The notes beneath the pieces are model-generated. The model worked only from the letters and a program-made list of their open reading frames with translations, did no database searches and had not been told where the DNA came from. Shown in pieces: positions 12,532 through 29,607 of a DNA stretch of 64,000 nt. Within the stretch, counting starts at the first letter, position 1. Each line of letters opens with the position of its first letter. Where the stretch lies: positions 51,840-115,839 of the forward strand of contig CATINC010000004.1 of assembly GCA_949524905.1 (NCBI GenBank), in the 5' to 3' direction. The position numbers and the translations under genes were made by a program. The DNA comes from Opitutia bacterium UBA7350. GTDB taxonomy: Bacteria; Verrucomicrobiota; Verrucomicrobiia; Opitutales; Coraliomargaritaceae.

Positions 12532-13212
12532 AAATTATAATATACTCAACCGGAAATAAAAACATTATTCAAACTGTATATAATGTCTTCTGGGGGCGAT
12601 TTATGGACCGTTTTACGAACGTGAGTCGTTCAATAAATCTGCTGTTGATGTCTCTTAAAAATTGACGCTGGTTCGCAGGGAAAAGCTTCGGCTCTCATTA
12701 AAGACGGCCTTGCAACCTCGAATAAAGAGATCCACAGCGTTTAAAAGATTATCGACTGCAAAGTCTAAATTGAAGGTGGGTCCACTGGGGCCCTTGCAGA
12801 ATAATTTGCCGCGCCAGCCCAAGAAAACCGTGGTGTTAAAATGTACGAATAACTAAACCGGTTGGTAAGTGGGGTCGGTCTTGATGAGCTTGCCATTTGC
12901 GCTGGTCTTGGTGATCAGATCGTTGCGGTCCTCTTCGCCGTTACCGTTGAGTTCGTTAGCCCGGGAAGCGGGAATATTTAGTGCAGTACATTATATTTTG
13001 AAGGGGGACGCCTTAAACGATACTTAATTTTGTCCATTAAATTACTGTATTGGCTGAAATAAAATGTCAGTCCTATGAGCAAATGGGTTATTCGGTTAAT
13101 CTTTTTGGTGTAGCGAACCGCGAATGAATCTTACCTTTGGGCGAACATTGAAGGTCTTGTATACCGTATCCATAACATATTTAATAATGTATTGCTTAAA
13201 TCCTGTTACTTC

Positions 13213-16107
13213 ATGTCTCCATTTATTGCTTTCAATTCTCACCTTAAAAATTCTGTTTTTACATTTCTGACGTTAATCGGTTCTGTGCTGACAGCTTTAC
13301 CGGAGGGGCAACTGCTCGCAGCGGAGCGTGCTTCCGTAGAAATGAGCCAGACAGATGCGCCAAAAGTCCATAACGATGCCTCTATTCGCTGGCTGGATAT
13401 GCACTACCAGGCAAAGCCAGACGGCACCCTGATGTATCTTGTGACGAAACACGGTCTTCTCATTGAGAACAGTTTATTTCATATCGAGCGTTTGAAGGGC
13501 GGAACCCATGCCAATCTCCTGCCATGGGAGATGCGGCAGCAAAGCCTCACAGACGGTTTTTTCTATGATGAGCCCGTTAAAATAGGCGCGGCGGCAGGTC
13601 GTTATCGCTATGCAACACAGTTGCAGGGAGTGCGCAGTTTGCGAACCGAAATTGACTTTACCGCCACCGGGTTTCGCGCCCAGCGACAAACTCTAAATCT
13701 CCCAATCGATACCTATGTCGGTAAGGCCTTTGAGATCAATGGCCGGCGGATTGACTATGGCAGCTTGGCTGATGTGGATAAAGAGCGCCGCCAAGTGATC
13801 GTGGCGCGCCAACCCTTGAAGTTTTTTCGTTCGCTAGCGGGTTCCGATCTCGGATTTACCTTACATGCAGAGTCGGATCTGGAAATCGAATTGCTTTGCG
13901 CAGTGGACTGGAAGGAGCACCGTTCTTTTTGGCTCAATCTTTACTGCGTTGACGGTGAAAGAATTCATCACCGCATTTCATTGCCGACTTCACCGGAAAG
14001 GGCAGATGTGGTTGATCATGAATCCCGACGCAACCGCTTGCTGAATGGCAGTTTTGAATTGGGACGCGAAGAGTGGGGGGTCATTTTTCACAAGTATGAC
14101 GTCAGTTCGGAGTGGGCGCTCGATGCCAGCACCGCCAGTGAGGGCGAACATTCCCTGAAGGTGAGCTTGGTACCGCAGGTCGCTCCTTATGAGGCTGCCA
14201 AAAAACATGCCACCGTTGCGTCAGAATATTTTGAGGCACGACCGCTTGAGAACCTAACGATTGCCGCTGATTTGAAGGCCTCCAAACCGGGACAACGGGT
14301 GAAGTTGCAGTTACGTTTTGTACCTACTGCGCTGGTGCCAAACCGTGGGAGTAATTTGATCGAGAAGAGCTTCACACTGGGAACAGGTTGGCAACGGTGT
14401 ACTTTTGAAGCGCGTCTTCCCCTTGCGGCAAAAGGAGCTTACGCCATTGCGGTAGCCATTCCAGCTACGGACGAAGCCATAGAGATATGGGTCGATGCCG
14501 TTTCGGTTCGTGACGCGGGTGCAGGTTCCGGCGACTATGTAGCCGCCAAGGCTTTAGAGGCGCACAGTGACACTCTGCGCTACCGACGTCTCTACGCTCC
14601 GGGTGAGCCGTTTGATGTGAGCACAACGCTTCGCAATAACAGCGATGCCTCATTTCCGGCATTTGCCAAACTTACTCTGCGTGATCGGATGGGAAGGGTG
14701 CTCCTTGAAGAATTGCGTTCGCTCGGTACCGTCGCCGCGAAAAATAATCTAAGCCTCGACTGGGAACTTCCGGTTCAAAGCGAACAGGGAATGTATCGTG
14801 TGCAGGTTGAAACCGGAACCGCCCCGAATGATTTGCAGTCCAGCCACCAGCTCTCGCTGGCGGTCTTGCGCGAACGTGAGGCAAACGTTGCCAACCCGGA
14901 TAATCGCTTTGGAGTCAATATTACGGATCTGCGTGAATTCTGGGCGCTGGAGCGGATCGGTATTGGTTGGTCGCGTTTCACCTTTGATTGCGGCTTGGGC
15001 AGTCTCATGCGGCAACCCGGTGTTTGGAATGCCGCGCAGGCCGAGAAGCTCGATGCACTGTTGGATTATCAGGCGAGCTTTGGGGTTACGCCCCTGCCGG
15101 TATTGGGGCCCGGAATGCCAAAGTGGGCTTCACGCGCAGCCAAAGGTTCATCCGCCACCCGCGCTTACACCCACAAAGAATCCGCAAATGAATATTTTGA
15201 TGATTACTTGAATCGTTTACTCGATTTGGCAGACGGGCGCATCTACGCCATCGAAACCTGGAACGAGCCGGATATCCCGCTCTTTTATCGAGGTACCATT
15301 GAGGAAATGTCGGATTTCACTACCCGCGTCTATGACTTGATAAAGGCGCATTCGCCTGAAATCGAGGTAGTAGGTCTGGGGCTCGCAACTCCAGCGGAGA
15401 CGCACAATAAATTTCTTCATGAGCTGCTCGGTCATTCCAGCCTGCGTCCCTATGATGCCATTTCATATCATCCCTATACGGAAGGACGACGCCATCCGGC
15501 CCGGGGAGATTTTCGCGAGGTAGTGCAGGGCATTGTCGAGGTTATCTCAGAGTTTGGTACAGTACCGCCTCTGTGGGCTACTGAGTTCGGCTACTTTGGT
15601 TACGCGCATGACGCCAAACCTTTTGTGCCGTTTAAGAATCCATTTGTAGCGCGTGAGATTCTCGATGAAGAGGAAAGTGCGGCCGCATGGATTCAGGCAA
15701 TTTCGACTGCATTTGCCAACGAGGTGTCGAAAGCTTTCTATTTCACCTTGCTGGAGGGGAATCTGCTTGACCGTTGGTTGCAGGGCTGGGTTGGACCCGG
15801 CGGACGCAATGTGGAGTCTGGATTCATCGCGGCGGCGACTGCGTGCGATATAATCAAAGGGGTGGACTGCCTCGGGCAGGAAGAAATTGCGCCGGGTATT
15901 TGGCAGACGCGGTTTAAGGGATCAGGTCGAAGCCTTGTCGTACTCTGGAGCGAGTCCGGTGAGCAAACTTACACCATACGGAGTTCTAAATCGCTTGACG
16001 CACGAGATCTTTACAACAACCCCATCACTTTTGCATCACAGTCTGGAAAAGTTTCTATACCCGTAACGCCATCACCAATTTACCTATTTGTAAAAGATTT
16101 GCGCTAA
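13213..16107 (+). CDS. Secreted multidomain glycoside hydrolase: unknown N-terminal region, CBM-like jelly-roll, clan GH-A (beta/alpha)8 catalytic domain
   Basis: ORF track start is TTG 13192; the first ATG is 13213 (MSPFIAFNSHLKNSVFTFLTLIGSVLTALP, a signal-like sequence). The CBM4/9/22-style module runs from NRLLNGSFELGREEWGV to IEIWVDAVSVRD (about 14038-14511). The catalytic domain has IETWNEPD (Glu codon 15265-15267, acid/base-like) and LWATEFGY (Glu codon 15583-15585, nucleophile-like) 106 aa apart. This is the classical clan GH-A spacing. Confidence 0.75.
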   Translation: MSPFIAFNSHLKNSVFTFLTLIGSVLTALPEGQLLAAERASVEMSQTDAPKVHNDASIRWLDMHYQAKPDGTLMYLVTKHGLLIENSLFHIERLKGGTHANLLPWEMRQQSLTDGFFYDEPVKIGAAAGRYRYATQLQGVRSLRTEIDFTATGFRAQRQTLNLPIDTYVGKAFEINGRRIDYGSLADVDKERRQVIVARQPLKFFRSLAGSDLGFTLHAESDLEIELLCAVDWKEHRSFWLNLYCVDGERIHHRISLPTSPERADVVDHESRRNRLLNGSFELGREEWGVIFHKYDVSSEWALDASTASEGEHSLKVSLVPQVAPYEAAKKHATVASEYFEARPLENLTIAADLKASKPGQRVKLQLRFVPTALVPNRGSNLIEKSFTLGTGWQRCTFEARLPLAAKGAYAIAVAIPATDEAIEIWVDAVSVRDAGAGSGDYVAAKALEAHSDTLRYRRLYAPGEPFDVSTTLRNNSDASFPAFAKLTLRDRMGRVLLEELRSLGTVAAKNNLSLDWELPVQSEQGMYRVQVETGTAPNDLQSSHQLSLAVLREREANVANPDNRFGVNITDLREFWALERIGIGWSRFTFDCGLGSLMRQPGVWNAAQAEKLDALLDYQASFGVTPLPVLGPGMPKWASRAAKGSSATRAYTHKESANEYFDDYLNRLLDLADGRIYAIETWNEPDIPLFYRGTIEEMSDFTTRVYDLIKAHSPEIEVVGLGLATPAETHNKFLHELLGHSSLRPYDAISYHPYTEGRRHPARGDFREVVQGIVEVISEFGTVPPLWATEFGYFGYAHDAKPFVPFKNPFVAREILDEEESAAAWIQAISTAFANEVSKAFYFTLLEGNLLDRWLQGWVGPGGRNVESGFIAAATACDIIKGVDCLGQEEIAPGIWQTRFKGSGRSLVVLWSESGEQTYTIRSSKSLDARDLYNNPITFASQSGKVSIPVTPSPIYLFVKDLR

Positions 16108-16123
16108 CAAATTACCACAAGTC

Positions 16124-17878
16124 ATGATAAATTCAAAACTCCACTTTACTAGTTTCTTGATCCTCCTTGGGAGCATCCTACTTCATGGCGGTGAACGTCC
16201 GAATGTTCTTCTGATTGTTTGCGATGACTTGAATACGGACCTCTCGGGTTATGGCGGACATCCACAGTCCGTAACGCCGAACATTGAGCGACTCATGGAT
16301 CGTTCGGTATCATTCAAGCAGGCGCATTGCACGATCCCGATTTGCGCGCCCTCGCGGTCGAGTTTCCTAACCGGCATCTACCCGCACACCTCCAATAATT
16401 TTGGAATGAGTCATTGGCAGAAAAATGAAATCCTCGCAAATTCAAGCACTATTTCCGGACACTTCAAGCGCAACGGTTACTACACCCTTGGGACGGGGAA
16501 GGTCATGCACAACTACGTACCCGACCAGTGGGACGAGTTTAAATCCGAATCCGACTACGGTCCTTTCGCCTTTAACGGAGAAGAAGACGTTCCACATCCG
16601 ATGACCCCATCGCCTTTCCGGGATGATTTTGGCAAGATCGACGGTTCCTTTGGTCCCTTTATTAACTTGGAGGGGCGCGATTTTGGCGATGGCAAACAAT
16701 ACCGTTGGCGCAGCGGGAATTGGAAAAACACCTATGATATTGAATTCACCAGTGAAGCAGACCGAAGTTTCACCGCCGACGAAAGCAATGCCCAATGGGC
16801 CATCCAACGACTCGCGGAACTTGCATCTAAAAAGCGCGCGCAACCCTTCTTTATGGCGGTCGGATTTATGCGCCCCCACACCCCTCTGATCGTTCCCCAA
16901 CGCTTCTTTGATCGCTACCCCATCGAAAGTCTCGACCTGCCGGTAATCCTTGAGAACGACGCGGACGATACCTTTTTGCTTCAATCACGCGGGGGCAATG
17001 ACCGGGGACGCAAGATTTATAAAAGTCTGGTTGCTTCCTATGGCGGTGATCGTGAGTTGGCGCTCAAACATTTTGTGCAAGCCTACCTCGCTTGCGTCGC
17101 TTCGATTGACGAGCACATCGGGGGTATATTGGAAACTTTGGAGAAAACAGGGCTCATCGATAATACTGTCATTGTTTTTACCAGCGACCACGGATGGGGC
17201 AACGGTCCCAAGGACGTTGTTTATAAAAACACCCTCTGGGAAGAAAGTACCCGCGTTCCGCTTATTATTAGCGCACCGGGGGTTTCAAAACAAGATGTGA
17301 TAGTTGAGCAACCGGTCTCATTAGTGGATCTTTTTCCGACCCTCATAGAACTGTGCGGTTTGCCTGAAGAGACACGACTGGGTGATCAGGGTGTGCCTCT
17401 GGACGGGCATAGCCTCGTACCATTCTTGAGGAAAGCTGACAGCGCAAACTGGTCTGGGCCGGCGGCGGCATTGACAACAATACACAAATGGAATGATCAC
17501 GATCCTGCCAAGCAAAGCTATTCCCTACGTAGTAAGAATTGGCGTTACATTCGCTATCACAACGGCGATGAAGAACTCTATCACAACGCCGCCGATCGCC
17601 ACGAATGGACTAATCTTTCTGCCAAGCCTAAATATGCATCCGTAATGAACGCCTTTAGAAAGGAGATGGACCACAGGGTGTATCAGACATTTGCGCAACA
17701 AGCGTTACCCTCCGTAGTGCCCAAAGCGGAATCAAGGGCAACGGCGACCAAAGATGCTGGGGAAGCGTGGAAGGATAAATATTTTAAAAAGTACCCTGAG
17801 TCTGATTCAAATGGAGACGGCACTTTGTCCTGGCCCGAATACAAAAAGCATAAATCAGCGCTGGATTCTCAAAGCTAA
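16124..17878 (+). CDS. Secreted sulfatase (Cys-type) with a C-terminal EF-hand-like Ca-binding loop
   Basis: 584 aa. Signal peptide MINSKLHFTSFLILLGSILLHG. Motifs: LLIVCDDLNTDLSGYGG, CAPSRSSFLTGIYP, VFTSDHGW. The C-terminal DSNGDGTLSWPE (17804-17839) fits the 12-residue EF-hand loop consensus. Confidence 0.92.
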   Translation: MINSKLHFTSFLILLGSILLHGGERPNVLLIVCDDLNTDLSGYGGHPQSVTPNIERLMDRSVSFKQAHCTIPICAPSRSSFLTGIYPHTSNNFGMSHWQKNEILANSSTISGHFKRNGYYTLGTGKVMHNYVPDQWDEFKSESDYGPFAFNGEEDVPHPMTPSPFRDDFGKIDGSFGPFINLEGRDFGDGKQYRWRSGNWKNTYDIEFTSEADRSFTADESNAQWAIQRLAELASKKRAQPFFMAVGFMRPHTPLIVPQRFFDRYPIESLDLPVILENDADDTFLLQSRGGNDRGRKIYKSLVASYGGDRELALKHFVQAYLACVASIDEHIGGILETLEKTGLIDNTVIVFTSDHGWGNGPKDVVYKNTLWEESTRVPLIISAPGVSKQDVIVEQPVSLVDLFPTLIELCGLPEETRLGDQGVPLDGHSLVPFLRKADSANWSGPAAALTTIHKWNDHDPAKQSYSLRSKNWRYIRYHNGDEELYHNAADRHEWTNLSAKPKYASVMNAFRKEMDHRVYQTFAQQALPSVVPKAESRATATKDAGEAWKDKYFKKYPESDSNGDGTLSWPEYKKHKSALDSQS

Positions 17879-17897
17879 AACACGATAGTATCCCATA

Positions 17898-19310
17898 ATG
17901 AAGCTCTTAAACTATATCGGCGGCGACTGGGTAGACAGCGACGATGCCATTGAAATTTTTAATCCTGCCAACGGCGAGCGCATCGGCTCGGTTGCAGCAG
18001 CTAGTGAAGCAGACGTCGATCGCGCTCTAGAACAGGCTCAAAAAGCAAGCCTAGTCTATGGTGCTTTAACAATTAACGAGCGAAAGACGCTCATCGACTC
18101 TGTGATTACGAAGCTTAAGGAAGCGGAGTCTGAAATTGTCAATCTTCTGGTTGAGGAAACCGGGAAGACGCATGAAATCGCGAGCTACGATTTCAACATG
18201 CTGGTCGATTGCCTTAGTTATTACGTAGAAGAGGTAAAACGACACTATGGGGAGACCATTCCTGACTATGACGGCGGTCATTTGAATTTCCTTTCGTATC
18301 AACCGATTGGTGTAGTGGCAGCTGTGCTCACCTGGAATTTCCCCTTGTTGAACTTGGGCTACAAACTGGGACCCGCTCTTGCAAGTGGTTGCGCCTCGGT
18401 CATTAAAATAAGCGAACGCACGCCGATGGCCTCTATGCGCGTGGCCGAATTGATCCATGAAATCGGTTTTCCTGCGGGCACGGTGAATTTTCTGTGTGGA
18501 GGGGGCAGGGTAGTCATACCGGCTTTGGCAAGAAGTAAGATCCCTCGGATGCTGACCATGATTGGTTCTACGCTAGCCGGTAAAAAAATGATCGAAGCTT
18601 CACCCACCACCGTGAAACGCTTTTCACTTGAGCTGGGTGGCGATGCACCGGTTCTCGTTTTTGATGATGCCGATTTTGATGCCGCTGTTGCCGATGTCGT
18701 CGGCTTGAAACTGGCGAATGCGGGTCAAATCTGCGTCGCGCCCAACCGAGTCTTTGTCCATGAATCCATTTATGAAGCCTTTATTGAAAAAGCAAAAGCG
18801 CTGATGGAGAGCTACCGTTTTCTGGATGATTCCGGTAACGGTCCGGAGTTGAGTCCGCTCTGCACCAAGGCAAGCCTTGAGCAAATGGTGGATTTTTGTC
18901 AGCCCGCAAACCACGGGGGTATTGTGGTGACCGGCGGTAAGCGCGCCGAGCGTCCGGGCTATTTCCTTGAGCCGACCCTTATTCGCGACGTTGATCGCAA
19001 TTCCAAACTTACCTGCGAGGAAATTTTCGGACCCATCATGCCCGTGATGCCATTCAATGATTCAGAAGACATCTTTGCACTCGCTAATGATACGGTCTAC
19101 GGACTTTCTGCCTATGTTTACACAAAGAGCCTGAGTCGCGCCCTTGAAGCGGAGAAACGCCTTCTCTTTGGCAATATTCTCATTAACGAAGCTTTCTATT
19201 CTCTGCAATTGCCACACGGCGGCTTAAAGCAAAGCGGTTTTGGTAAAGACGTCAGTCGTCTTGCCCTGGATGATTACTACGACATCAAGCGCATTTCCAT
19301 CAAACGCTAA
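17898..19310 (+). CDS. NAD(P)-dependent aldehyde dehydrogenase; candidate 3,6-anhydrogalactose dehydrogenase
   Basis: 470 aa. ALDH motifs LELGGDAP (catalytic Glu) and ANAGQICVAPNRVFV (catalytic Cys), plus EEIFGPIMPV. The substrate assignment comes from gene context only. Confidence 0.9.
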   Translation: MKLLNYIGGDWVDSDDAIEIFNPANGERIGSVAAASEADVDRALEQAQKASLVYGALTINERKTLIDSVITKLKEAESEIVNLLVEETGKTHEIASYDFNMLVDCLSYYVEEVKRHYGETIPDYDGGHLNFLSYQPIGVVAAVLTWNFPLLNLGYKLGPALASGCASVIKISERTPMASMRVAELIHEIGFPAGTVNFLCGGGRVVIPALARSKIPRMLTMIGSTLAGKKMIEASPTTVKRFSLELGGDAPVLVFDDADFDAAVADVVGLKLANAGQICVAPNRVFVHESIYEAFIEKAKALMESYRFLDDSGNGPELSPLCTKASLEQMVDFCQPANHGGIVVTGGKRAERPGYFLEPTLIRDVDRNSKLTCEEIFGPIMPVMPFNDSEDIFALANDTVYGLSAYVYTKSLSRALEAEKRLLFGNILINEAFYSLQLPHGGLKQSGFGKDVSRLALDDYYDIKRISIKR

Positions 19311-19314
19311 GACC

Positions 19315-20469
19315 ATGAAGATTGCTGACATTCAATGCTTCCCCTTGCGCTCTGACCTCAATCGGGCGATTGGCTTCTCGCAATGGTATTACACCGCTAA
19401 GAATAATTGCCTGATCAAGATCACCTGTGAGGACGGCACGATCGGCTGGGGCGAATGCTATGGGCCAAGCATGGCGATTGCTTCTTCAGTGGAACATCAT
19501 TTCAAACCTTTGCTCATCGGAAAAAATGCACTTCAGAACGAGCATCTTTGGAGCCACCTTTGGCGCGCTTATCACGATTTCAACCGTAGTGGTATTTTTA
19601 TGGCGGCCATATCGGGACTCGATATCGCGCTGTGGGACATTAAAGGCAAAGCACTTCAGGTGCCGGTTCGCACCTTACTGGGTGGTTCCGATGACCCCAT
19701 CCCTTGTTACGCCACTGGTATGTATTTTCGCAACGACAAAGACGAACCGGAGATGCTCGAAGAGTTGCTCAACGAAGCCACAGGCTATTTGAAACAGGGC
19801 TACGATTTCCTAAAGGTCAAGATCGGTAAGAATATCGAATTTGACCGCGAACTTGTATCTCAATTCCGCGAACGTTTCCCGGGAACGAAAATCGCTGCCG
19901 ATTCGAATCACGCCTACAATTTCAAGGAAGCGCTGGATATGGCGCAACTACTTGAATCACTCGAATACCGTTGGTTCGAAGAGCCGCTTGCTCCCGATAA
20001 TTATGCCGACATGGCGCGTTTGCGTCAATCAACCACCGTGCCAATTGCGGCGGGTGAGTGCGAGCAAACCCGATTCGGCTTCGAACGCCTCGCACGTGCG
20101 GGCAGTCTCGATATTTATCAACCTGACATCGCGTACTGCGGCGGGCTTAGCGAGTTTCAGAAGATTATTGCGATCGCTTCGGCGGCACATGCGGACGTGG
20201 TGCCGCATTGCTGGGGTCTCAAGGTAAACCAAGCCGTTGCTGCCTCAGCGATCAGTATGTTGCCGGACAACCCTGGGCGTTTTGAAGGACGATCCGTTTA
20301 TCTGGAGATGGATCAAACGGAGCATCCAGTGCGCGATTCGATTTTTACCAGGGCACACAGCATCAAAGATGGAATGTTGCATTTCAACGACTCGACTGGA
20401 CTCGGCGTTGAGGTCGATGAGTCGACCTTGCTTGGTTATGTCGTTAAGGTAAACCAGAACGCCCAATAG
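19315..20469 (+). CDS. Enolase-superfamily (mandelate racemase/muconate lactonizing) enzyme; candidate 3,6-anhydrogalactonate cycloisomerase or sugar-acid dehydratase
   Basis: Starts at MKIADIQCFPL (ATG 19315, 4 nt after the ALDH stop); the 19240 start in the ORF track overlaps the ALDH. Shows the MR/MLE pattern: GWGECYG, DIALWDIKGK, KVKIG, DSNHAY, WFEEP, AAGE, IYQPDI, HCWG. Confidence 0.88.
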   Translation: MKIADIQCFPLRSDLNRAIGFSQWYYTAKNNCLIKITCEDGTIGWGECYGPSMAIASSVEHHFKPLLIGKNALQNEHLWSHLWRAYHDFNRSGIFMAAISGLDIALWDIKGKALQVPVRTLLGGSDDPIPCYATGMYFRNDKDEPEMLEELLNEATGYLKQGYDFLKVKIGKNIEFDRELVSQFRERFPGTKIAADSNHAYNFKEALDMAQLLESLEYRWFEEPLAPDNYADMARLRQSTTVPIAAGECEQTRFGFERLARAGSLDIYQPDIAYCGGLSEFQKIIAIASAAHADVVPHCWGLKVNQAVAASAISMLPDNPGRFEGRSVYLEMDQTEHPVRDSIFTRAHSIKDGMLHFNDSTGLGVEVDESTLLGYVVKVNQNAQ

Positions 20470-20485
20470 ATAGAAACGCTCTAAA

Positions 20486-21127
20486 ATGAAAAATCACTTT
20501 TCAGAATCAATACGAAGGGAAATCGCCGCCTCACGTGCAATTGCTACCGTGACGATCGAAAATACCGAAAACGTGAAAACACTTGCGGAAGCGTTACTTG
20601 CCGGCGGGATTCGTTGTATCGAGATCACTCTGCGCACACCTGTCGCGCTTGAGTCGATGCAAATTGTAGCACAGGCTTTTCCGGAGATGCAGGTGATCGC
20701 GGGAACCGTGATTGCGCCGGAACAGATCAAAGCCGTTCAGGATGCGGGCGCCGTTTGTGCGGTCGCCCCGGGGATGAATCGCAAAGTCATCGAAGCGGCG
20801 CTGGATGCCAATCTACCCTTTGCTCCCGGCGTTGCCACCCCCAGTGAAATCGAGACCGCCCTCGAGTACGATTGTGACATCATGAAACTCTTTCCCGCAG
20901 AACCTCTGGGCGGATTGTCATACTTAAAAAATATGCAGACCCCGTATGCCCATCTCGGTATCCAGTTTATTCCGCTCGGCGGGCTGAATGCCAAAAACGC
21001 TGAGGTCTATCTTCAGGAGGCATTTATTCTCGCGGTGGGCGGTTCATGGATCGCCAAAACCGACGCCATTAAGGCGGGCGATTGGGCAGGCATTACCGCA
21101 CGTGCCGCCGCGCTTACTTCCAATTAA
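20486..21127 (+). CDS. 2-keto-3-deoxy-6-phospho-(gluconate/galactonate) aldolase, Eda/DgoA family
   Basis: 213 aa. Motifs: IEITLRTP, IAGTVI, APGVATPSEI, IMKLFPAE, typical of class I KDPG/KDPGal aldolases. Confidence 0.88.
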   Translation: MKNHFSESIRREIAASRAIATVTIENTENVKTLAEALLAGGIRCIEITLRTPVALESMQIVAQAFPEMQVIAGTVIAPEQIKAVQDAGAVCAVAPGMNRKVIEAALDANLPFAPGVATPSEIETALEYDCDIMKLFPAEPLGGLSYLKNMQTPYAHLGIQFIPLGGLNAKNAEVYLQEAFILAVGGSWIAKTDAIKAGDWAGITARAAALTSN

Positions 21128-21141
21128 TTGAAGCATTTATC

Positions 21142-22233
21142 ATGAAAAAAGTCGTAACCTTTGGAGAAGTGATGCTGCGCTTTGCGCCGCGTGAACACTA
21201 CCGATTTGAACAAGTTGCGCCGGGCGAAATGGATCTCACCTTTGGTGGGGCCGAAAGCAACGTGGCGGCTTCTATTGCAATGTTTGGTGGTGCTGCCCGT
21301 TTTGTGACGGCATTGCCCAAGCATGCCATCGCGGATGCCTTTATGCGTCAGATGCGGGGATTTGAAGTGGATATGGATTCGGTGGTACGCCGGGAGGAGG
21401 GCCGTTTCGGCGCTTACTTTGTTGAAACGGGCGCCAACCAGCGTCCAAGTCGTGTAATCTACGACCGTGAACACAGCGCGGTTTCCCTTTGCCCGGGCAA
21501 CGCTTATGATTGGGATAGCGTTTTAGCGGATGCACAGTGGCTTCATATTTCCGGCATAACGCTGGCGATTTCCGAAACAGCTGCACAAACCGCAATCTTC
21601 GCCGCAGAAAAAGCTCAGGCTGCTGGAGTTACGGTTTCCTGTGACTTGAACTTCCGCAAAAACCTCTGGCGCTGGCGTCCGGGAACCGACGCCCAAACAC
21701 TCGCCCGTGAGGTCATGCCGCAATTCCTTGAGCGCGTAAATGTCGTTATCGGCAACGAGGAAGACGCCGCGGACGTTCTGGATATTCACGCAGGTGACAG
21801 CGATGTACATGCCGGATCGCTTCAGATCGAACGCTATCCTGACGTTGCCCGTCAAATTGTCCAACGCTTCGACAAGGTGCAGTCGGTTGCCATCACTTTG
21901 CGCGAAAGTATTTCCGCTAGTCACAACAATTGGGGGGCGATGCTCTATGATGCCGCTTCCGACGCTGCTTCCTTTGCTCCCTTGAACGGCGAGGACTACC
22001 AACCCTACGAGATCCGAAACATCGTCGACCGTGTCGGCGGCGGTGATTCCTTTGCTGCGGGGCTTATTTTTGCCATAACTTGTGGTGATTTGAAATCACC
22101 ACAGGAACAGGTAAGCTTTGCGGTGGCGGCTTCTTGCCTCGCGCATTCCGTAAAGGGCGATTCTAATTACAATAATCGTGCCGAGGTTGAAACGCTCATG
22201 CGAGGTGATGCCTCCGGTCGTGTACAGCGTTAA
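21142..22233 (+). CDS. PfkB-family sugar-acid kinase (2-keto-3-deoxy-gluconate/galactonate kinase-like)
   Basis: Start MKKVVTFGEVMLRFAP at ATG 21142; the 21082 start in the track overlaps the aldolase. Motifs: GGAESNVA, and the C-terminal DRVGGGDSFAAGL (PfkB anion-hole/catalytic Asp motif). Confidence 0.85.
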   Translation: MKKVVTFGEVMLRFAPREHYRFEQVAPGEMDLTFGGAESNVAASIAMFGGAARFVTALPKHAIADAFMRQMRGFEVDMDSVVRREEGRFGAYFVETGANQRPSRVIYDREHSAVSLCPGNAYDWDSVLADAQWLHISGITLAISETAAQTAIFAAEKAQAAGVTVSCDLNFRKNLWRWRPGTDAQTLAREVMPQFLERVNVVIGNEEDAADVLDIHAGDSDVHAGSLQIERYPDVARQIVQRFDKVQSVAITLRESISASHNNWGAMLYDAASDAASFAPLNGEDYQPYEIRNIVDRVGGGDSFAAGLIFAITCGDLKSPQEQVSFAVAASCLAHSVKGDSNYNNRAEVETLMRGDASGRVQR

Positions 22234-22245
22234 CCCCTTATCATT

Positions 22246-23772
22246 ATGAGAGTTAATCTACTGTTCGTTTTTTTATTTGTCACGGTCGCCACGGGGGCAG
22301 ATTACTACCTTAACGCTGAATTCGGCTCTGACGCCGCAAACGGTCTAAGCGAAAGGACGGCTTGGCGCAGTCTTGAACGCTTGAATAAGCAAGCGCTCAA
22401 AGCCGGTGACCGCATCCTGCTCGAGGCGGGGCAGGTTTTTCCCGGGCAATTCCATTCCAAGGATTCCGGAAGCGAGGCTGAGCCCATTCAGATGCTCAGT
22501 TATGGGGAGGGTGCCAAGCCGCGCATCGAGGCTCGAGGCAAATTTCAAACCGCGCTTTTGCTGGAGAATGTTTCCCATTGGATCATCGAAGGCATCGAAA
22601 TTACGAATACCGGGCCGGAACCGCAGGCGAAGCGACGTGGGGTCTTGATAAGAGCGAATGCAGGTGGGGTCCACAGAAATATTGTCCTACGCGGACTAAC
22701 GATTCGCGATGTTAACGGATCGATTTCAAAAAACAAGGGTGGGGGAACCGCTATCCGTTGGGAGGTCAGTAACCAGAAAAAACCGACTCGCATGGAGGGT
22801 CTCCTGATTGAGGACTGCCACGTATTGCGCTGTGACCGCGATGCTATCAAGGGTTGGATGGATCCCTGGGACGATCTTTCAAATTTGAGCACGGGCATTA
22901 TTATTCGGGGCAATTTACTTGAGGATATCGGCGGCGACGGCATTGTACCTATTGGAACCGAGGGTGCCTTGATAGAGTACAATCGTTTGTACGGTGCACG
23001 TCAGCGCATAGAGGGTCTTAATACCAGGGAAGTCACGCACTATGCAGGTCCGAGCGTGGGCATCTGGCCGTGGAGCAGCAAAAATACGCACGTGCGATTC
23101 AATGAGGTTTGGAATTATGCCGGTACGTTTGATGGACAGGGCTTGGACTCCGACTTCAATTGCTCAGGAACCCTTTTTGAATACAACCTGAGTGCGCAGA
23201 ACGCCGGTGGGTTCTTCCTGATTTGCAATTGGTCGAAGCATCAGGACTCCGGGCAATCGATCGGCAACTCCGGCACAATAATCCGCCACAACGTCAGTTT
23301 TAATGACCGCATCCGTGGTTTCGTTCTCAATGGCCCTGTCGAGACCGTAAGCCTTCACGGTAATGTCATTTACAACACCGTGGAGGATATCTTTCAACTT
23401 ATTGTTGATACACCCTGGGAGGGTGGACGTTTCTCGGAGTCGGTCACCGTAACCGACAATCTTTTCTTCACCCGTGGCGAGGCTCAGATTTATCAAGGCA
23501 CCTGGGGCGGCGGCGGCATGGGACTCTGGAAAGCCCAAAAGAAAATCAGCCGTCAAAACTTTGACTTTAAGGGCAACGCCTACACCCGCGTGACTGGATT
23601 TAAGGGGACGGAGCATATCGAGCCGGGAAAGATTCAATTGAAAAATTCCGAGACTCTGGGATCTTTGATCGGTCGTTTTGACGCTGACCTTAAAGTGCGT
23701 GCAAATTTTGACCGCATGCACCGTTTCCTTGAGAAGTCGCGCTATTGGTCGCTGCTTCAAGCTGCACTTTGA
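22246..23772 (+). CDS. Secreted right-handed parallel beta-helix protein; candidate polysaccharide hydrolase or lyase of unknown family
   Basis: 508 aa. Signal peptide MRVNLLFVFLFVTVATGA. The N-terminal cap reads DYYLNAEFGSDAANGLSERTAWRSLERLNKQALKAGDRILLEAGQVF. It is followed by about 10 PbH1-like coils at 22-30 aa spacing: WIIEGIEITNTG, IVLRGLTIRDVNG, LLIEDCHVLRCDRDAIKG, IIIRGNLLEDIGGDGIVP, ALIEYNRLYGA, THVRFNEVWNYAG, TLFEYNLSAQNAGG, TIIRHNVSFND, VSLHGNVIYNT, VTVTDNLFFT. Confidence 0.7.
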   Translation: MRVNLLFVFLFVTVATGADYYLNAEFGSDAANGLSERTAWRSLERLNKQALKAGDRILLEAGQVFPGQFHSKDSGSEAEPIQMLSYGEGAKPRIEARGKFQTALLLENVSHWIIEGIEITNTGPEPQAKRRGVLIRANAGGVHRNIVLRGLTIRDVNGSISKNKGGGTAIRWEVSNQKKPTRMEGLLIEDCHVLRCDRDAIKGWMDPWDDLSNLSTGIIIRGNLLEDIGGDGIVPIGTEGALIEYNRLYGARQRIEGLNTREVTHYAGPSVGIWPWSSKNTHVRFNEVWNYAGTFDGQGLDSDFNCSGTLFEYNLSAQNAGGFFLICNWSKHQDSGQSIGNSGTIIRHNVSFNDRIRGFVLNGPVETVSLHGNVIYNTVEDIFQLIVDTPWEGGRFSESVTVTDNLFFTRGEAQIYQGTWGGGGMGLWKAQKKISRQNFDFKGNAYTRVTGFKGTEHIEPGKIQLKNSETLGSLIGRFDADLKVRANFDRMHRFLEKSRYWSLLQAAL

Positions 23773-23790
23773 AGTAACACAATTAAACCA

Positions 23791-25839
23791 ATGGACTACC
23801 AAAAGAAGGGAATCCCGAAGCAAACCGGACTATTCTATGGTGCGGATTACAACCCCGATCAATGGCAACACGCGCCGGAGATCCTTGAGCGTGACATCGC
23901 GCTCATGAAAGAGGTGGGCGTGACCTCTGCCTCGATTGGTATCTTCGCTTGGACTGCGCTGGAACCGCAGGAGGGACGGTACCAATTTGAATGGCTTGAT
24001 CGTATCATGGACCGTTTCGCCGAGGAAGGAATGTTTGTTTTTTTGGCAACGCCCAGCGGAAGCAAACCGATTTGGCTTTCCGAAAAATACCCGGAAGTGC
24101 GCCGTCTTGGAATTGACGGACTGCGGGAAAATTCGGGTCGACGTCATAATCATTGTTTGAGTTCAAAGGTTTATCGTGAAAAAACCCGCGCGATTAATAC
24201 CGCACTTGCCGAACGTTACGGGCAACATCCCGCACTCGCGCTCTGGCATGTGGGCAACGAATTTAGCGGGGAATGTCATTGTGAGCATTGTCGCCTTGCC
24301 TTTCAGAACTGGCTCAAGGAACGCTACCACACGCTCGACGCCCTCAACGATGCCTGGTGGAGCGCCTTTTGGAATCACACCTACTCCGATTGGGGCGAGA
24401 TCCAAACCCACGACCCAAGTATCGACGCCCTACAGCTCGATTGGATGCGTTTCGTCAATGACCAGCACGTTTTGTTTATGCTCAATGAAATGGAACCCCT
24501 GCGTGAGTTGACCCCGGGGATTCCATGTACCACCAATTTCATGGGAACGCACGAAAGCACCAATTACTGGCAGTGGGCGGAACACGTGGACTGCATTGCC
24601 AATGATTTGTACCCCTTGCCGGATGATCGCAAGGACACCTGGCGCAATGCCATTCGCGCAGATTTCATCCACACTATGATGCGCGGCATGAGTGGCGGTA
24701 AGCCCTGGATGTTGATGGAATGTTCGCCAAGTTCGGTCAACTGGGGAGGCATTAATCAATTAAAGCGTCCGGGCGTGCATCGGCAAGAGGTGCTCCAGGC
24801 GGTCGCCAACGGTGCCAGTACGGTTCATTATTTTCAATGGCGCAAGGGCAGGGGTGGCTTTGAAAAATACCACGGGGCAGTCGTCGATCACGAGGGCAGT
24901 AACCGAAGCCGGGTGTTCCAAGACTGCGCCGCCATCGGTGCGGAACTTAAAAGCCTCGCTCCATTGGGTGAGCACGATTGTCCAACAGCTGAGGTAGCTT
25001 TGCTTTACGACTGGGAAAGCCGTTGGGCGCTCAAGTCCTCAAAAGGCCCCAAGGTCCTCAAAGAGGAGGGCCCATTTGCTTCAGATCTCTACAGCGAGAC
25101 TTGTTTCGACCATTACGAAGCCCTAACGCAAAACGGCTTGTCGGTCGATGTGGTTTCAACGAAATCAGACTTGAGTCATTACAAGGTCCTGGTTCTACCC
25201 GCACTGTATTTTGTGGAGGATGCCCTCGCTTCCCGCATTCGGGCTTTTGTTGAAAAGGGCGGTAACGTGGTGGGTACTTATTTAACGGCCTATGTCGATT
25301 CAAGCAACCGTTGCCACCTCGGCGGTTTCCCCGGTGCTGGGCTTCGAGAAGTCTTTGGCATATGGAACGAAGAACTCGACAACCTTCATGATGAAACACG
25401 GGTAATACTAGAGGGCGAAGTGCAGGGTGTGGCGCGTGACCTCGCCGAGCGGATTCATTTGGAGGGCGCAAGCACGCTAGCGCAAGCGGCATCAGAGTTT
25501 TACGCGGGGCATCCTTTGGTCACGCACATGGATTACGGGGAGGGTTCTGCCTGCTATATTGCCGCGCGTTTGGAAATGCCCGCCTTGTGCGCCTTCTATC
25601 AACATCTGCGGGAAAAAGTCGGTTTGGAGCGTACGGTGGCATGTGATCTTCCGCAGGGCGTTGTTTTTCGGAAGCGCAAGTCCGCTGATGGCACCCTGGG
25701 TTTTCTTTTTAACTATACCCGAGAAACTAAGCGCATTGGATTAGGTGAGGGGAAATGGTTCGCCTTCGGTGAACCGGAGACCATTTATGCTGGCTCGCTG
25801 GAATTAGCGCCCTATGCCACCCTGACTCTAAGGTTGTAG
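23791..25839 (+). CDS. GH42 beta-galactosidase, cytoplasmic
   Basis: 682 aa. Motifs: FYGADYNPDQWQ, WHVGNEFSGECHCEHC (acid/base Glu plus the GH42 Cys-cluster Zn site), PWMLMECSPS (nucleophile Glu). No signal peptide. Confidence 0.92.
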   Translation: MDYQKKGIPKQTGLFYGADYNPDQWQHAPEILERDIALMKEVGVTSASIGIFAWTALEPQEGRYQFEWLDRIMDRFAEEGMFVFLATPSGSKPIWLSEKYPEVRRLGIDGLRENSGRRHNHCLSSKVYREKTRAINTALAERYGQHPALALWHVGNEFSGECHCEHCRLAFQNWLKERYHTLDALNDAWWSAFWNHTYSDWGEIQTHDPSIDALQLDWMRFVNDQHVLFMLNEMEPLRELTPGIPCTTNFMGTHESTNYWQWAEHVDCIANDLYPLPDDRKDTWRNAIRADFIHTMMRGMSGGKPWMLMECSPSSVNWGGINQLKRPGVHRQEVLQAVANGASTVHYFQWRKGRGGFEKYHGAVVDHEGSNRSRVFQDCAAIGAELKSLAPLGEHDCPTAEVALLYDWESRWALKSSKGPKVLKEEGPFASDLYSETCFDHYEALTQNGLSVDVVSTKSDLSHYKVLVLPALYFVEDALASRIRAFVEKGGNVVGTYLTAYVDSSNRCHLGGFPGAGLREVFGIWNEELDNLHDETRVILEGEVQGVARDLAERIHLEGASTLAQAASEFYAGHPLVTHMDYGEGSACYIAARLEMPALCAFYQHLREKVGLERTVACDLPQGVVFRKRKSADGTLGFLFNYTRETKRIGLGEGKWFAFGEPETIYAGSLELAPYATLTLRL

Positions 25840-25885
25840 GGGCGGGGCTTTTGGGTCTTGCTGTGGAAGACTACCCAATATTCCC

Positions 25886-27298
25886 ATGAAGCTTTTTAAA
25901 AAAACCAAGACCTCGCGTTTTCAAACCCTCGTTATTGGTATCGCCCTGACTGCCGCCGCAACGCTGGTCAACGCCAAGCCAAACATCATTGTCATTTTTG
26001 CCGACGATATGGGTTACGGCGACATGAGCAATAACGGCCACCCAACCATCCGCACGCCCCATTTGGATCAAATGACTGCAGAGGGGCAGAAATGGACAAG
26101 TTTCTATTCGGCTTCTTCGGTCTGTACTCCCAGTCGTGCGGCGCTTCTGACGGGTCGTTACGCTGTTCGGAGCGGTATGGAGTCAAAGGCTTACGGGGTA
26201 CTCTTTCCGGATTCAAAGGGCGGACTGCCAGCCTCGGAAGTCACCCTCCCTGAAATGCTCAAAGAGGTGGGTTATGCCACGGGTATGGTGGGGAAGTGGC
26301 ACCTCGGGCACCTGCCGGAGTTTCTCCCGACCCGCCACGGATTTGATTCCTGGTACGGCATCCCCTATAGCAATGACATGGAACTCGATCGACCAAAGGT
26401 CACGGAACTCAATGGCGGGAGTCTGGGTCAATGGCATACGGGTGTTCATTGGGATGAGCCGAAGTCGGAATATTGGCAAGTACCGCTCATGGAAGGGGAG
26501 ACTATTCTCAAGCTTGCTCCGGATCAGACCCAGCTCACAAAATCCTACACTACAAAAGCCATCGATTTTATCGAGTCCCACAAAAAAAAGCCCTTCTTCC
26601 TCTATCTTGCACACAGCATGCCTCACGTCCCGCTCTTTCGCTCAAAGGACTTTGAGGACTTCAGCGCCGCAGGACTTTACGGCGATGTCATTGAAGAGAT
26701 CGACCATTCGGTCGGTCAAATCCTAGGAGCTTTGCGTGAGAACGGGCTCGCGAAAAACACCCTCGTGGTCTTCACTTCCGATAATGGCCCCTGGTTAGAG
26801 TTCAAGACGAAGGGCGGTATCGCTGGTCCCTTGCGCGGCGGGAAGTTTGATACTTACGAGGGCGGTATGCGTGAGCCGGGGATTTTCTGGTGGCCGGGCA
26901 AAATAAAGCCGGCAATCATTCACGATATCGGTTCCACGCTGGATTTTATGGCAACCTTTGCCGCCATTGCAGGACTCGATGCGCCCGAAGCCGCAGTCGA
27001 TAGCTACGATCTCTCGGGCACTTTGTTGCAGGGCGAGGCAAGTCCACGCAAGGAACTCTTTTACTACAAGAGTACTCACGTCGAGGCACTTCGTGTCGGT
27101 AGCTTCAAAGTCCACTTTGACCGCGATGCTAGGTCCGCCAAGCCGGCAATCACGGCTTGCTATAACCTTGACCACGATCCCGGGGAAAACTACGACCTAC
27201 GCGAATCCCAAGCGCACTTATTGTCGGACTTCATCCAGCGCCTGCAACAACACCGCGCAACCATCGAACCCGTAGAGGATCAACTCGCAAGGCGATAG
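25886..27298 (+). CDS. Secreted sulfatase (Cys-type, arylsulfatase A/GalNAc-6-sulfatase-like)
   Basis: 470 aa. Signal peptide MKLFKKTKTSRFQTLVIGIALTAAATLVNA. Motifs: IIVIFADDMGYGDMSNNG, CTPSRAALLTGRYAVRSG, VFTSDNGPW, GGKFDTYEGGMREP. Confidence 0.93.
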   Translation: MKLFKKTKTSRFQTLVIGIALTAAATLVNAKPNIIVIFADDMGYGDMSNNGHPTIRTPHLDQMTAEGQKWTSFYSASSVCTPSRAALLTGRYAVRSGMESKAYGVLFPDSKGGLPASEVTLPEMLKEVGYATGMVGKWHLGHLPEFLPTRHGFDSWYGIPYSNDMELDRPKVTELNGGSLGQWHTGVHWDEPKSEYWQVPLMEGETILKLAPDQTQLTKSYTTKAIDFIESHKKKPFFLYLAHSMPHVPLFRSKDFEDFSAAGLYGDVIEEIDHSVGQILGALRENGLAKNTLVVFTSDNGPWLEFKTKGGIAGPLRGGKFDTYEGGMREPGIFWWPGKIKPAIIHDIGSTLDFMATFAAIAGLDAPEAAVDSYDLSGTLLQGEASPRKELFYYKSTHVEALRVGSFKVHFDRDARSAKPAITACYNLDHDPGENYDLRESQAHLLSDFIQRLQQHRATIEPVEDQLARR

Positions 27299-27322
27299 GC
27301 GGATTGGGTTGAATCTTGAGCC

Positions 27323-28132: not shown

Positions 28133-28325
28133 AGTTTTGAATGAGTGGATTTAAGGCGCTACACGTGTAATTCAATGTTCGGCGGCACACTAGTCAAAAG
28201 AATTAAGCAGACTTCAAAGCAGGAAGCATAGATGGACACGAATTCATAGGATGAAGACAATGTTCGATACTTGTCCGCTGACGCCTTGGCGTAGGTGGAA
28301 GACGCGATGGGTCAAAGCTCTATGC

Positions 28326-29597: not shown

Positions 29598-29607
29598 ATA
29601 GCGCGGC

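Follow-up and report, generated by a model that had tools for sequence, protein, structure and literature searches.

We analysed 64,000 nucleotides of the genome of Opitutia bacterium UBA7350 (Verrucomicrobiota; contig CATINC010000004.1, positions 51,840 to 115,839; this whole stretch is referred to as the window), in which four consecutive genes on the plus strand encode an aldehyde dehydrogenase (ALDH; dauA-like, 17898-19310, 470 aa), a protein of the mandelate racemase/muconate lactonising enzyme type (MR/MLE; dauB-like, 19315-20469, 384 aa), an Eda-type aldolase (20486-21127, 213 aa) and a PfkB kinase (21142-22233, 363 aa). All four open with ATG; the MR/MLE gene ends with TAG and the other three with TAA. 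The coordinates of the genes and the gaps of 4, 16 and 14 bp between them had been given in an original prediction made from the sequence without database searches, and both were borne out by inspection of the sequence. A mechanical list of open reading frames (ORFs) contains in-frame TTG starts further upstream for the MR/MLE gene (19240) and the kinase gene (21082); we kept the ATG starts because the alignments with homologues and with Pfam models begin at residue 1 or 2. All four proteins score far above the Pfam gathering thresholds. Judged by sequence comparison and gene context, the four genes are likely to be a dau-type module of a marine verrucomicrobium for the catabolism of 3,6-anhydro-D-galactose (D-AHG), a sugar specific to red-algal carrageenan, placed within a locus for the use of sulfated galactans. 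The reference system is the dauABCD set (ZGAL_3153-3156) that Ficko-Blean et al. (2017, PMC5698469) described in Zobellia galactanivorans.

The module lies inside a run of nine plus-strand genes (13192-27298) that are spaced by 4-46 bp and encode, in this order, a 971-aa protein, a sulfatase, the dauA-like ALDH, the dauB-like MR/MLE protein, the aldolase, the kinase, a beta-helix protein, a glycoside hydrolase (GH) of family GH42 and a second sulfatase. The nine genes probably form an operon, a call based on spacing only; a promoter and terminator scan of 12000-28500 returned fewer sites than in shuffled sequence, none of them intergenic.

The dehydrogenase and the MR/MLE protein

The ALDH (Pfam Aldedh, 442 bits) carries the catalytic cysteine and glutamate that had been claimed for it, as Cys279 within GQICVAPNR and Glu245 within LELGG. 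Its top sequence match in the Protein Data Bank (PDB) is DauA of Pseudoalteromonas fuliginea (6PNU/6POP; 374 bits, 41.6% identity), ahead of a succinate semialdehyde dehydrogenase (SSADH) of Escherichia coli (3JZ4, 341 bits) and a lactaldehyde dehydrogenase (279 bits). Both entries were deposited in the study of P. fuliginea PS47 (PMC6923384), whose only ALDH structures are the apo and NADP+-bound forms of DauA, the NADP+-dependent D-AHG dehydrogenase of that strain. Against the NCBIfam model for alpha-ketoglutaric semialdehyde (KGSA) dehydrogenase the ALDH scores 292 bits, far under the cutoff of 770. With DauA on top, it does not group with lactaldehyde or KGSA dehydrogenases, the outcome that the original prediction had named as evidence against itself. 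The ALDH is thus a predicted DauA-like, NAD(P)+-dependent D-AHG dehydrogenase.

The MR/MLE protein (MR_MLE_N, 66 bits; MR_MLE_C, 185 bits) finds its top PDB match over the full length in 5OLC (328 bits, E 6e-97), which is Z. galactanivorans DauB (ZGAL_3156), the cycloisomerase of 3,6-anhydro-D-galactonate, followed by the galactarolactone cycloisomerase AtGci (4GGB/4HPN, 234 bits) and by 3BJS (173 bits); the identities of 5OLC and 4GGB are those given in PMC5698469. BLASTP identity amounts to 42% with DauB and 33% with AtGci. The catalytic set, comprising K167-x-K169, the metal ligands D196, E222 and E248, and H298, aligns throughout with DauB and AtGci, whose catalytic residues are listed in the same study (PMC5698469). 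The cycloisomerase VejACI of the 3,6-anhydro-L-galactose (L-AHG) pathway (5XD7) reaches 138 bits in a partial alignment, and named galactonate, rhamnonate and mannonate dehydratases reach 130 bits at most; a grouping with galactonate, fuconate or rhamnonate dehydratases, the second finding that would have spoken against the original prediction, was not seen. Weak NCBIfam matches to arabinonate and galactonate dehydratase models (221 and 162 bits) lie far under the respective cutoffs, and neither the ALDH nor the MR/MLE protein nor the kinase receives an equivalog-level name from NCBIfam. We predict, from these similarities, that the MR/MLE protein is a DauB-like 3,6-anhydro-D-galactonate cycloisomerase.

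Scanning one genome per species gave 523 relatives, from which we kept 80 loci. The closest is a metagenome-assembled genome (MAG) of the Coraliomargaritaceae (92% identity), and eleven loci (63-92% identity; L001-L011) all belong to Opitutia, either Coraliomargaritaceae or 'Opitutae' seawater MAGs. The remaining loci (41-47% identity), among which are the canonical dau loci, come from Bacteroidota, Planctomycetota, Gammaproteobacteria and other Puniceicoccaceae. We built neighbour-joining trees with Kimura distances from 91 sequences for the MR/MLE protein (100 bootstraps; PDB sequences added as references and outgroups) and from 80 sequences for the ALDH (60 bootstraps; outgroups four SSADHs, no L-AHG dehydrogenase); these are distance trees that include one characterised DauB, from Zobellia, and one characterised DauA, and their loci were retrieved by motif. 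In the MR/MLE tree, the Opitutia clade is monophyletic (100/100) and joins DauB-like proteins of Planctomycetota, Gammaproteobacteria and other Verrucomicrobiota (96/100), with the Bacteroidota DauBs, including that of Zobellia, as their sister group (100/100) and AtGci outside all DauB-like sequences (78/100); a canonical-only DauB clade without the window clade was recovered in 0/100 replicates. The ALDH tree mirrors this topology, in that all DauA-like proteins, including the window clade, stand apart from the four SSADHs (60/60) and canonical-only DauA monophyly appears in 13/60 replicates; P. fuliginea DauA groups with Bacteroidota enzymes and not with the window clade. In these distance trees both window proteins fall within the Dau radiations, a placement that agrees with the original prediction, which had proposed phylogenetic placement as its check.

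Identity of the MR/MLE protein to canonical DauBs is 42-47% (Zobellia, 42%), compared with 43-46% among canonical DauBs across phyla (Zobellia DauB shares 46% with a planctomycete protein and 44% with a gammaproteobacterial one), so that its divergence is no greater than that between canonical DauBs of different phyla. We defined signature residues as columns with 90% or more conservation among the canonical sequences (n = 70 for DauB) that no outgroup shares. The MR/MLE protein holds nine of the eleven DauB-specific residues (F21, S22, Q23, Y26, Y137, F138, C249, E250 and L259), with a lid loop that reads F21-S22-Q23-W24-x-Y26; the two other positions are changed across the Opitutia clade (V170I, S226A). 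The ALDH holds 16 of 19 DauA-specific residues, the clade-wide changes being H130N, M318L and C452V.

Kinase, aldolase and comparison with known dau loci

The aldolase belongs to PF01081 (KDPG/KHG aldolase; 189 bits), as does Zobellia-type DauD, and scores 201 bits with TIGR01182 eda (cutoff 156). Identity is 46-53% with aldolases encoded beside dauBA in Planctomycetota and some Flavobacteriia, and only 26-34% with Zobellia-type DauD. From its sequence it is predicted to act as a 2-keto-3-deoxy-6-phospho-D-galactonate aldolase in the DauD role; the galacto stereospecificity is presumptive, because NCBIfam scores the Eda type, which acts on 2-keto-3-deoxy-6-phosphogluconate (KDPG), over the DgoA type, which acts on the galactonate epimer (KDPGal), although an aldolase of the same subtype belongs to the dau locus with GH16 and GH127 in Novipirellula. 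The kinase matches PfkB (95 bits), the NCBIfam model for the kinase half of an aldolase/kinase fusion (432 bits) and that for a haloarchaeal 2-keto-3-deoxygluconate/galactonate (KDG/KDGal) kinase (182 bits). The original prediction, which likened the four genes to dauA-D, needs a refinement for this protein: the DauC orthologue of Zobellia barbeyronii is a PF05035 DGOK, to which the PfkB kinase of the window is non-homologous. We accordingly describe it as a putative PfkB-family 2-keto-3-deoxy-hexonate kinase that would take the DauC role without being of the DauC family.

The kinase of the dau pathway can be absent or replaced (PMC5698469). Among 54 full-length canonical loci, DGOK stands beside dauBA in 28, relatives of the window kinase and aldolase (56-62% and 46-53% identity) adjoin dauBA in 14, including the Novipirellula sp. 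SH528 locus, and an HpcH/HpaI aldolase without a kinase is found in seven; the PfkB/Eda pair beside dauBA in Planctomycetota and some Flavobacteriia suggests that the back-end of the pathway in the window is an alternative already known. In three pelagic Bacteroidota loci (L049, L036 and L045), dauA is directly followed by a class II aldolase of the HpcH/HpaI type, with no kinase, which fits the non-phosphorylative variant suggested in PMC5698469.

The ALDH and MR/MLE genes are adjacent in 72 of the 80 loci. The Opitutia-clade order, namely 971-aa protein, sulfatase, dauA, dauB, aldolase, kinase, beta-helix protein and GH42, is kept down to 51-63% identity, the 971-aa gene also standing upstream of dauA in L002 and L007-L011. 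Individual members differ in accessory genes: a TonB-dependent receptor lies upstream in L008-L010, L005 adds an MFS_2 transporter and a second GH39-like gene, and L009 and L007 add SASA or GDSL esterases.

The Zobellia system shares its chemistry with the window (dehydrogenase, cycloisomerase, kinase and aldolase), and both have an AraC regulator and S1 sulfatases. The locus of Z. barbeyronii (L041) reads AraC, GntP, RhaT-like transporter, dauB, dauA, DGOK kinase, PF01081 aldolase, GH129-like DagB, sulfatase and GH127, matching ZGAL_3150-3159. Its order is thus B-A-C-D, whereas that of the window is A-B-D-C; the kinases belong to different families (DGOK, PF05035, versus PfkB), the aldolases are distant (26-34% identity), and the window has no GH127 or GH129-like anhydrogalactosidase, SusC/D, RhaT or GntP beside the genes. 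The hosts also differ, being Bacteroidota and Verrucomicrobiota, respectively. The core carrageenan system has been defined as dagA GH127 together with dauA, dauB and dauD (Ficko-Blean et al. 2017, PMC5698469); of these, the GH127 is the one not found in the window. The carrageenan locus CarPUL of P. fuliginea PS47 (Hettle et al. 2019, PMC6923384) resembles the window in having no GH127/129, in its many exo-sulfatases and in a clan GH-A exo-enzyme; it uses GH16 carrageenases and GH167, whereas the window has a canonical GH42, a GH136-like and a GH39-like protein.

The nearest neighbours of both diagnostic enzymes (43-47% identity) are found in Planctomycetota (L017) and other Verrucomicrobiota (Puniceicoccaceae, L012 and L014). 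These loci share the PfkB kinase (56-62% identity) and the Eda aldolase (46-53%) with the window; in them dauB precedes dauA, and the GH39-like, GH136-like and GH42 genes are missing. The planctomycete locus, from Novipirellula sp. SH528, runs GH16, dauB, dauA, aldolase, kinase, sulfatase, MFS transporter and GH127; GH16, GH127 and the transporter are not shared by the window. L012 carries a RhaT-like transporter and a six-hairpin GH78-like enzyme, and L012 and L013 have a GH2 subtype with 37-38% identity to the GH2 at the window edge. The L-AHG pathway of Vibrio sp. EJY3 (VejAHGD/VejACI, 5XD7) follows the same logic with the same superfamilies, an ALDH and an enolase-superfamily cycloisomerase, but serves the opposite enantiomer, from agar, and includes two extra oxidoreductases, neither of which was seen in 1-30 kb of the window.

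Neighbouring glycosidases, sulfatases and candidates for the release of D-AHG

The plus-strand run opens with a gene (13192-16107) for an exported 971-aa protein that has N-terminal beta-sandwich domains and a C-terminal clan GH-A (beta/alpha)8 domain. It has no Pfam match over cutoff and a weak sequence match to PslG; Foldseek searches with its AlphaFold2 model (pLDDT 77) returned GH39 (5JVK, E 3e-18) and PslG as the best hits. The motifs WNEPD (690) and ATEFGY (796) are invariant, and the family has 31 members, all with at least 51% identity; the protein is 100% identical to one of Opitutia bacterium UBA7350. On the modelled fold, this GH39-like protein is a clan GH-A retaining glycosidase outside any established family; a GH127/129 assignment was ruled out by the same fold.

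Directly after the kinase, a 508-aa secreted right-handed beta-helix protein is encoded at 22246-23772 on the plus strand (PF13229). Its PDB sequence matches are GH136 lacto-N-biosidases only (E 1e-29, 21-26% identity), and Foldseek with its AlphaFold2 model (pLDDT 94) gave six top hits that are all GH136 (TM ~0.7); an invariant aspartate cluster (D296, D301 and D303) lies inside the aligned core. We rejected an assignment as GH82 iota-carrageenase, no GH82 being present among the PDB sequence matches or the top 50 Foldseek hits. Fold and sequence are like those of LnbX, ErLnb136 and TnX; these lacto-N-biosidases act on milk and mucin glycans, whereas the window protein stands in a marine sulfatase setting, and no partner gene like LnbY of the GH136 system was seen beside it. 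Homologues elsewhere lie beside GH16 or, in Flammeovirga, in the company of sulfatases, GH2 and a porphyranase. The three pelagic Bacteroidota loci with an HpcH/HpaI aldolase also bear a T9SS-tagged beta-helix protein, with 25% identity to that of the window.

The next gene (23791-25839, +) encodes a 682-aa GH42 beta-galactosidase with Glyco_hydro_42 and trimerisation domains and no signal peptide, and hence a cytoplasmic enzyme (PF02449, 459 bits; PDB 5E9A, 635 bits over the full length). GH167 shares less than 20% identity with GH42 and has an additional N-terminal helical domain (PMC6923384); the canonical GH42 scores over the full length ruled out a GH167 exo-beta-carrageenase. At the left edge, on the minus strand, a GH2 gene (3-1748) runs past the window start, and its N-terminal 559 or more residues contain the domains Glyco_hydro_2_N, Glyco_hydro_2 and Glyco_hydro_2_C. 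It is 34-38% identical to a subtype found within a few kb of dauB/dauA in seven loci (L012, L013, L016, L070, L030, L048 and L051) and directly adjoining these genes in L013, L016 and L070; four of these seven loci, all of them full-length, have no GH127 nearby, and the hosts are Verrucomicrobiota, Planctomycetota and Bacteroidota.

The original prediction had recognised no GH16, GH82, GH127/129 or GH117, and this was upheld within the 64-kb window: no GH127 (PF07944), GH129, GH16 or GH82 occurs among the window proteins or in the 11 related Opitutia loci, the cluster itself running past the left edge at the GH2, and Pfam scans found no GH117, GH50 or GH86 in the cluster. The prediction had left the release of anhydrogalactose to one of the enzymes it could not assign; several of those neighbours are now assigned, as GH136-like, GH39-like, GH42 and GH2. 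A GH127 or GH129-like DagB lies within 10 kb either side of dauB in 29 of the 54 full-length canonical loci versus none of the 11 Opitutia-clade loci, and the beta-helix family is present in 10 of those 11 and in 3 of the 54 others. The latter three are loci of pelagic Bacteroidota that contain GH16, the beta-helix protein (25% identity), a LacZ-type GH2, dauB, dauA and an HpcH aldolase. The beta-helix protein and GH127 never occur together near dauB (Fisher p = 0.002), an exclusion that is no more than suggestive, with about two independent lineages behind it and 25 of the 54 canonical loci likewise without GH127 within 10 kb either side.

In GH127/129-less Pseudoalteromonas loci, the D-AHG-releasing enzyme was still unidentified (PMC6923384). 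Because the 11 Opitutia loci keep three atypical or uncharacterised glycosidases beside dauAB and never GH127/129, the Opitutia glycosidases are concrete candidates for this step. It is conceivable, although we regard it as doubtful, that the GH39-like, GH136-like, cytoplasmic GH42 and dau-linked GH2 enzymes form a set that releases D-AHG without GH127 or GH129. In such a scheme, the exported beta-helix or GH39-like enzyme would free (neo)carrabiose-type disaccharides, and the cytoplasmic beta-galactosidase would cleave Gal-beta-1,4-D-AHG. A GH127 could also be encoded elsewhere in the genome, outside the window. If the scheme is true, the enzymes would add new glycoside-hydrolase families to carrageenan biochemistry and would be candidates where the anhydrogalactosidase step is 'missing', as in the Pseudoalteromonas CarPUL and other loci that lack GH127. 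In L012 (positions 14709-17150), from a Puniceicoccaceae MAG, the kinase of the dauB-dauA-aldolase-kinase set is followed by a six-hairpin GH78-like protein and the dau-linked GH2, with no GH127 within 10 kb; the GH78-like protein is a further candidate replacement of the anhydrogalactosidase.

Six sulfatases surround the module, all of the Cys-type with a CxPxR motif. Directly upstream of dauA lies sulf5 (16124-17878, +), an S1 formylglycine sulfatase with a signal peptide (Pfam Sulfatase; CAPSR), whose best PDB matches are 6HHM and 6HR5; it is 60-80% identical to the proteins at the equal position in the Opitutia clade, and homologues (41-53% identity) occur in nine canonical dau loci. The plus-strand run ends with sulf6 (25886-27298), an S1 sulfatase with a signal peptide (Sulfatase, 220 bits; CTPSR) that best matches human arylsulfatase A (311 bits) and GalNAc-6-sulfatase (295 bits) in the PDB. 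The divergent minus-strand run starts with a conserved 261-aa protein (11746-12531) that has no Pfam or NCBIfam match and is 61-66% identical to proteins at the equal position in L002-L004. It is followed by the S1 sulfatase sulf4 (10355-11827; Sulfatase and SGSH_C; CCPAR), which has a Tat-type signal (RRDFLR) and whose true start is probably an internal methionine, by an AraC-family regulator and by three further sulfatases, with the GH2 at the edge. The regulator (9441-10343; HTH_18, HTH_AraC and AraC_binding) is conserved in L002-L004 (74-81% identity), and canonical dau loci also bear AraC regulators (PMC5698469); it has no close homology to CgrA, and a CgrA-like role is plausible. Among the three further S1 sulfatases on the minus strand, sulf3 (8049-9434; Sulfatase, 219 bits) is secreted and has homologues (36-43% identity) that are common in canonical dau loci, sulf2 (4802-7702; Sulfatase, CAPNR) is 966 aa long, and sulf1 (1844-3367; Sulfatase, CTPSR) has homologues (51-53% identity) in the dau loci L032 and L053. 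The N-terminus of sulf1 (MIQNFMTVNLPKLTPNFIIIYADD) shows no recognisable signal peptide, unlike the other five sulfatases, and the protein may be a cytoplasmic sulfatase for imported oligosaccharides, alongside the cytoplasmic GH42.

The genes of the divergent run are interspersed with a plus-strand gene (3705-4445) for a small secreted PEP-CTERM-anchored protein, a 32%-identical counterpart of which follows GH42 in L010 and L011. A 269-aa protein encoded at 27323-28132 (-) has a signal peptide and no Pfam or NCBIfam match. The radical-SAM/SPASM maturase of the anaerobic sulfatase-maturating (anSME) type (28326-29735, -; Radical_SAM and SPASM) probably starts at a later methionine; a 381-aa ORF (29608-30753, -) without Pfam match overlaps its annotated start by 128 bp. 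From 30.8 kb onward housekeeping genes follow (topA, lpxK, purL, arg genes, ilvC and hem genes). Mean G+C is about 51.3% in the half with the sulfatase/dau cluster (1-30000) versus about 45.0% in the housekeeping half (30000-64000), and this step in composition could reflect horizontal acquisition of the polysaccharide locus. Amid the housekeeping genes lies a tyrosine recombinase (50172-51101, -; Phage_integrase and an N-terminal SAM-like domain), most likely of the XerC/XerD type rather than a sign of a mobile element.

Alternative substrates and biological meaning

The presence of at least six Cys-type sulfatases, a maturase, an AraC regulator and four glycosidases suggests a utilisation locus for a carrageenan-type sulfated galactan. 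We infer all substrates and products, and the D-AHG-liberating enzyme, from homology and context, the chemistry of each step following that of the Zobellia and Pseudoalteromonas enzymes already characterised. The four genes would thereby encode a complete route in the cytoplasm. The DauA-like ALDH would oxidise D-AHG, in its open-chain aldehyde form and with NAD(P)+, to 3,6-anhydro-D-galactonate, and the DauB-like enzyme, with its Mg2+ site (D196/E222/E248), Lys167/169 as base and His298 as acid, would open the anhydro ring to give 2-keto-3-deoxy-D-galactonate. The PfkB kinase would then phosphorylate C6, and the Eda-type aldolase would split the product into pyruvate and glyceraldehyde-3-phosphate. 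The combination of an ALDH with an MR/MLE protein had been put forward as the signature of anhydrogalactose catabolism, and this withstood the comparison, with DauA and DauB as the best solved-structure matches and with both proteins nested in the Dau trees.

Several observations weigh against D-AHG as the substrate. The order dauA-then-dauB is inverted relative to all 69 other loci. Identity to characterised DauA and DauB, at about 42%, equals that between DauB and AtGci (41%), enzymes with different substrates. Since the lid motif FSQW had served, with one other pattern, to retrieve the comparison loci, its 100% conservation in the canonical set is partly built in; the outgroups of the ALDH tree are SSADHs only, with no L-AHG dehydrogenase sequence among them. 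NCBIfam scores the aldolase as a KDPG (gluco) enzyme, with 201-212 bits for eda models and 97 bits for the DgoA-type PRK09140. The partner glycosidases are unlike those of every characterised carrageenan system, no GH127/129 being found in the locus, and the relatives are pelagic MAGs (Tara, Mediterranean and North Sea), a setting in which red-algal carrageenan is no obvious substrate.

As an alternative, the ALDH and the MR/MLE protein could be Dau paralogues that act on another aldehyde sugar (an anhydro-, deoxy- or modified hexose) from a planktonic sulfated galactan other than carrageenan, the pathway still ending in a 2-keto-3-deoxy-hexonate that is then phosphorylated and cleaved. The identity of no more than 42-47% to canonical Dau proteins, the long stem branch, the inverted gene order, the GH39-like, GH136-like and GH42 set that is private to 11 Opitutia loci and occurs in almost no others, the clade-wide changes in DauB and DauA signature positions, the acetyl- or GDSL-esterases in sister loci, the gluco-type score of the aldolase and the pelagic origin of the MAGs are all in its favour. 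However, the clade branches inside the Dau radiation, canonical-only monophyly being absent or rare in the replicates of both trees, it keeps the substrate-lid loop and most signature residues, and it shares sulfatases of the sulf5, sulf3 and sulf1 kinds, the GH2 subtype and the kinase/aldolase pair with canonical dau loci. To our knowledge, no other natural sugar requires an ALDH together with a ring-opening cycloisomerase, which also counts against the paralogues. We consider a different sugar, the main rival reading, unlikely.

Far less probable is an L-AHG pathway for agar or porphyran, in which an AHG dehydrogenase and an AHGA cycloisomerase would precede a KDG kinase and a KDPG aldolase. 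The kinase and aldolase are indeed KdgK/Eda-like, as in the Vibrio EJY3 route, and the Flammeovirga homologue of the beta-helix protein lies near a porphyranase; yet VejACI matches only in part and with 138 bits versus 328 for DauB, both proteins are placed in Dau clades, neither of the two oxidoreductases that convert L-KDGal to KDG, nor any short-chain dehydrogenase/reductase for this step, was found by Pfam scans of 1-30 kb, and the window holds no GH117, GH50, GH86 or GH16 agarase. The preference for D-AHG over L-AHG in the original prediction is thus sustained. Equally improbable is a uronate or aldarate route with a Gci-like enzyme and a KGSA dehydrogenase, or a De Ley-Doudoroff variant with the MR/MLE protein as acid-sugar dehydratase: AtGci is the second-best structural relative and the dehydratase models of NCBIfam give weak matches, but all these scores are under that of DauB, AtGci falls outside the clade, the KGSA model stays far from its cutoff, the cluster has no uronate dehydrogenase, KdgD or lactonase, and an aldarate route does not require a kinase and a KDPG(al) aldolase.

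A D-AHG pathway of the dau type is in itself already known, while its host and gene neighbourhood are new, and on its own the advance is incremental. Bacteroidota and Gammaproteobacteria are its established hosts, and an earlier study had predicted it in Planctomycetes, Proteobacteria and Firmicutes (PMC5698469); in a literature search we found no description of it in Verrucomicrobiota or with GH136-like, GH39-like and GH42 partners. The locus analysed here would extend it to free-living marine Verrucomicrobiota (Opitutia). It also suggests that dauA and dauB stay together and co-evolve while their partners are exchanged, the glycosidases most of all, but also the kinase and the aldolase. In this context, the question arises which D-AHG-bearing polymer pelagic bacteria meet, and if the Opitutia glycosidases do release D-AHG, pelagic Verrucomicrobiota would consume D-AHG-containing galactans in open water.

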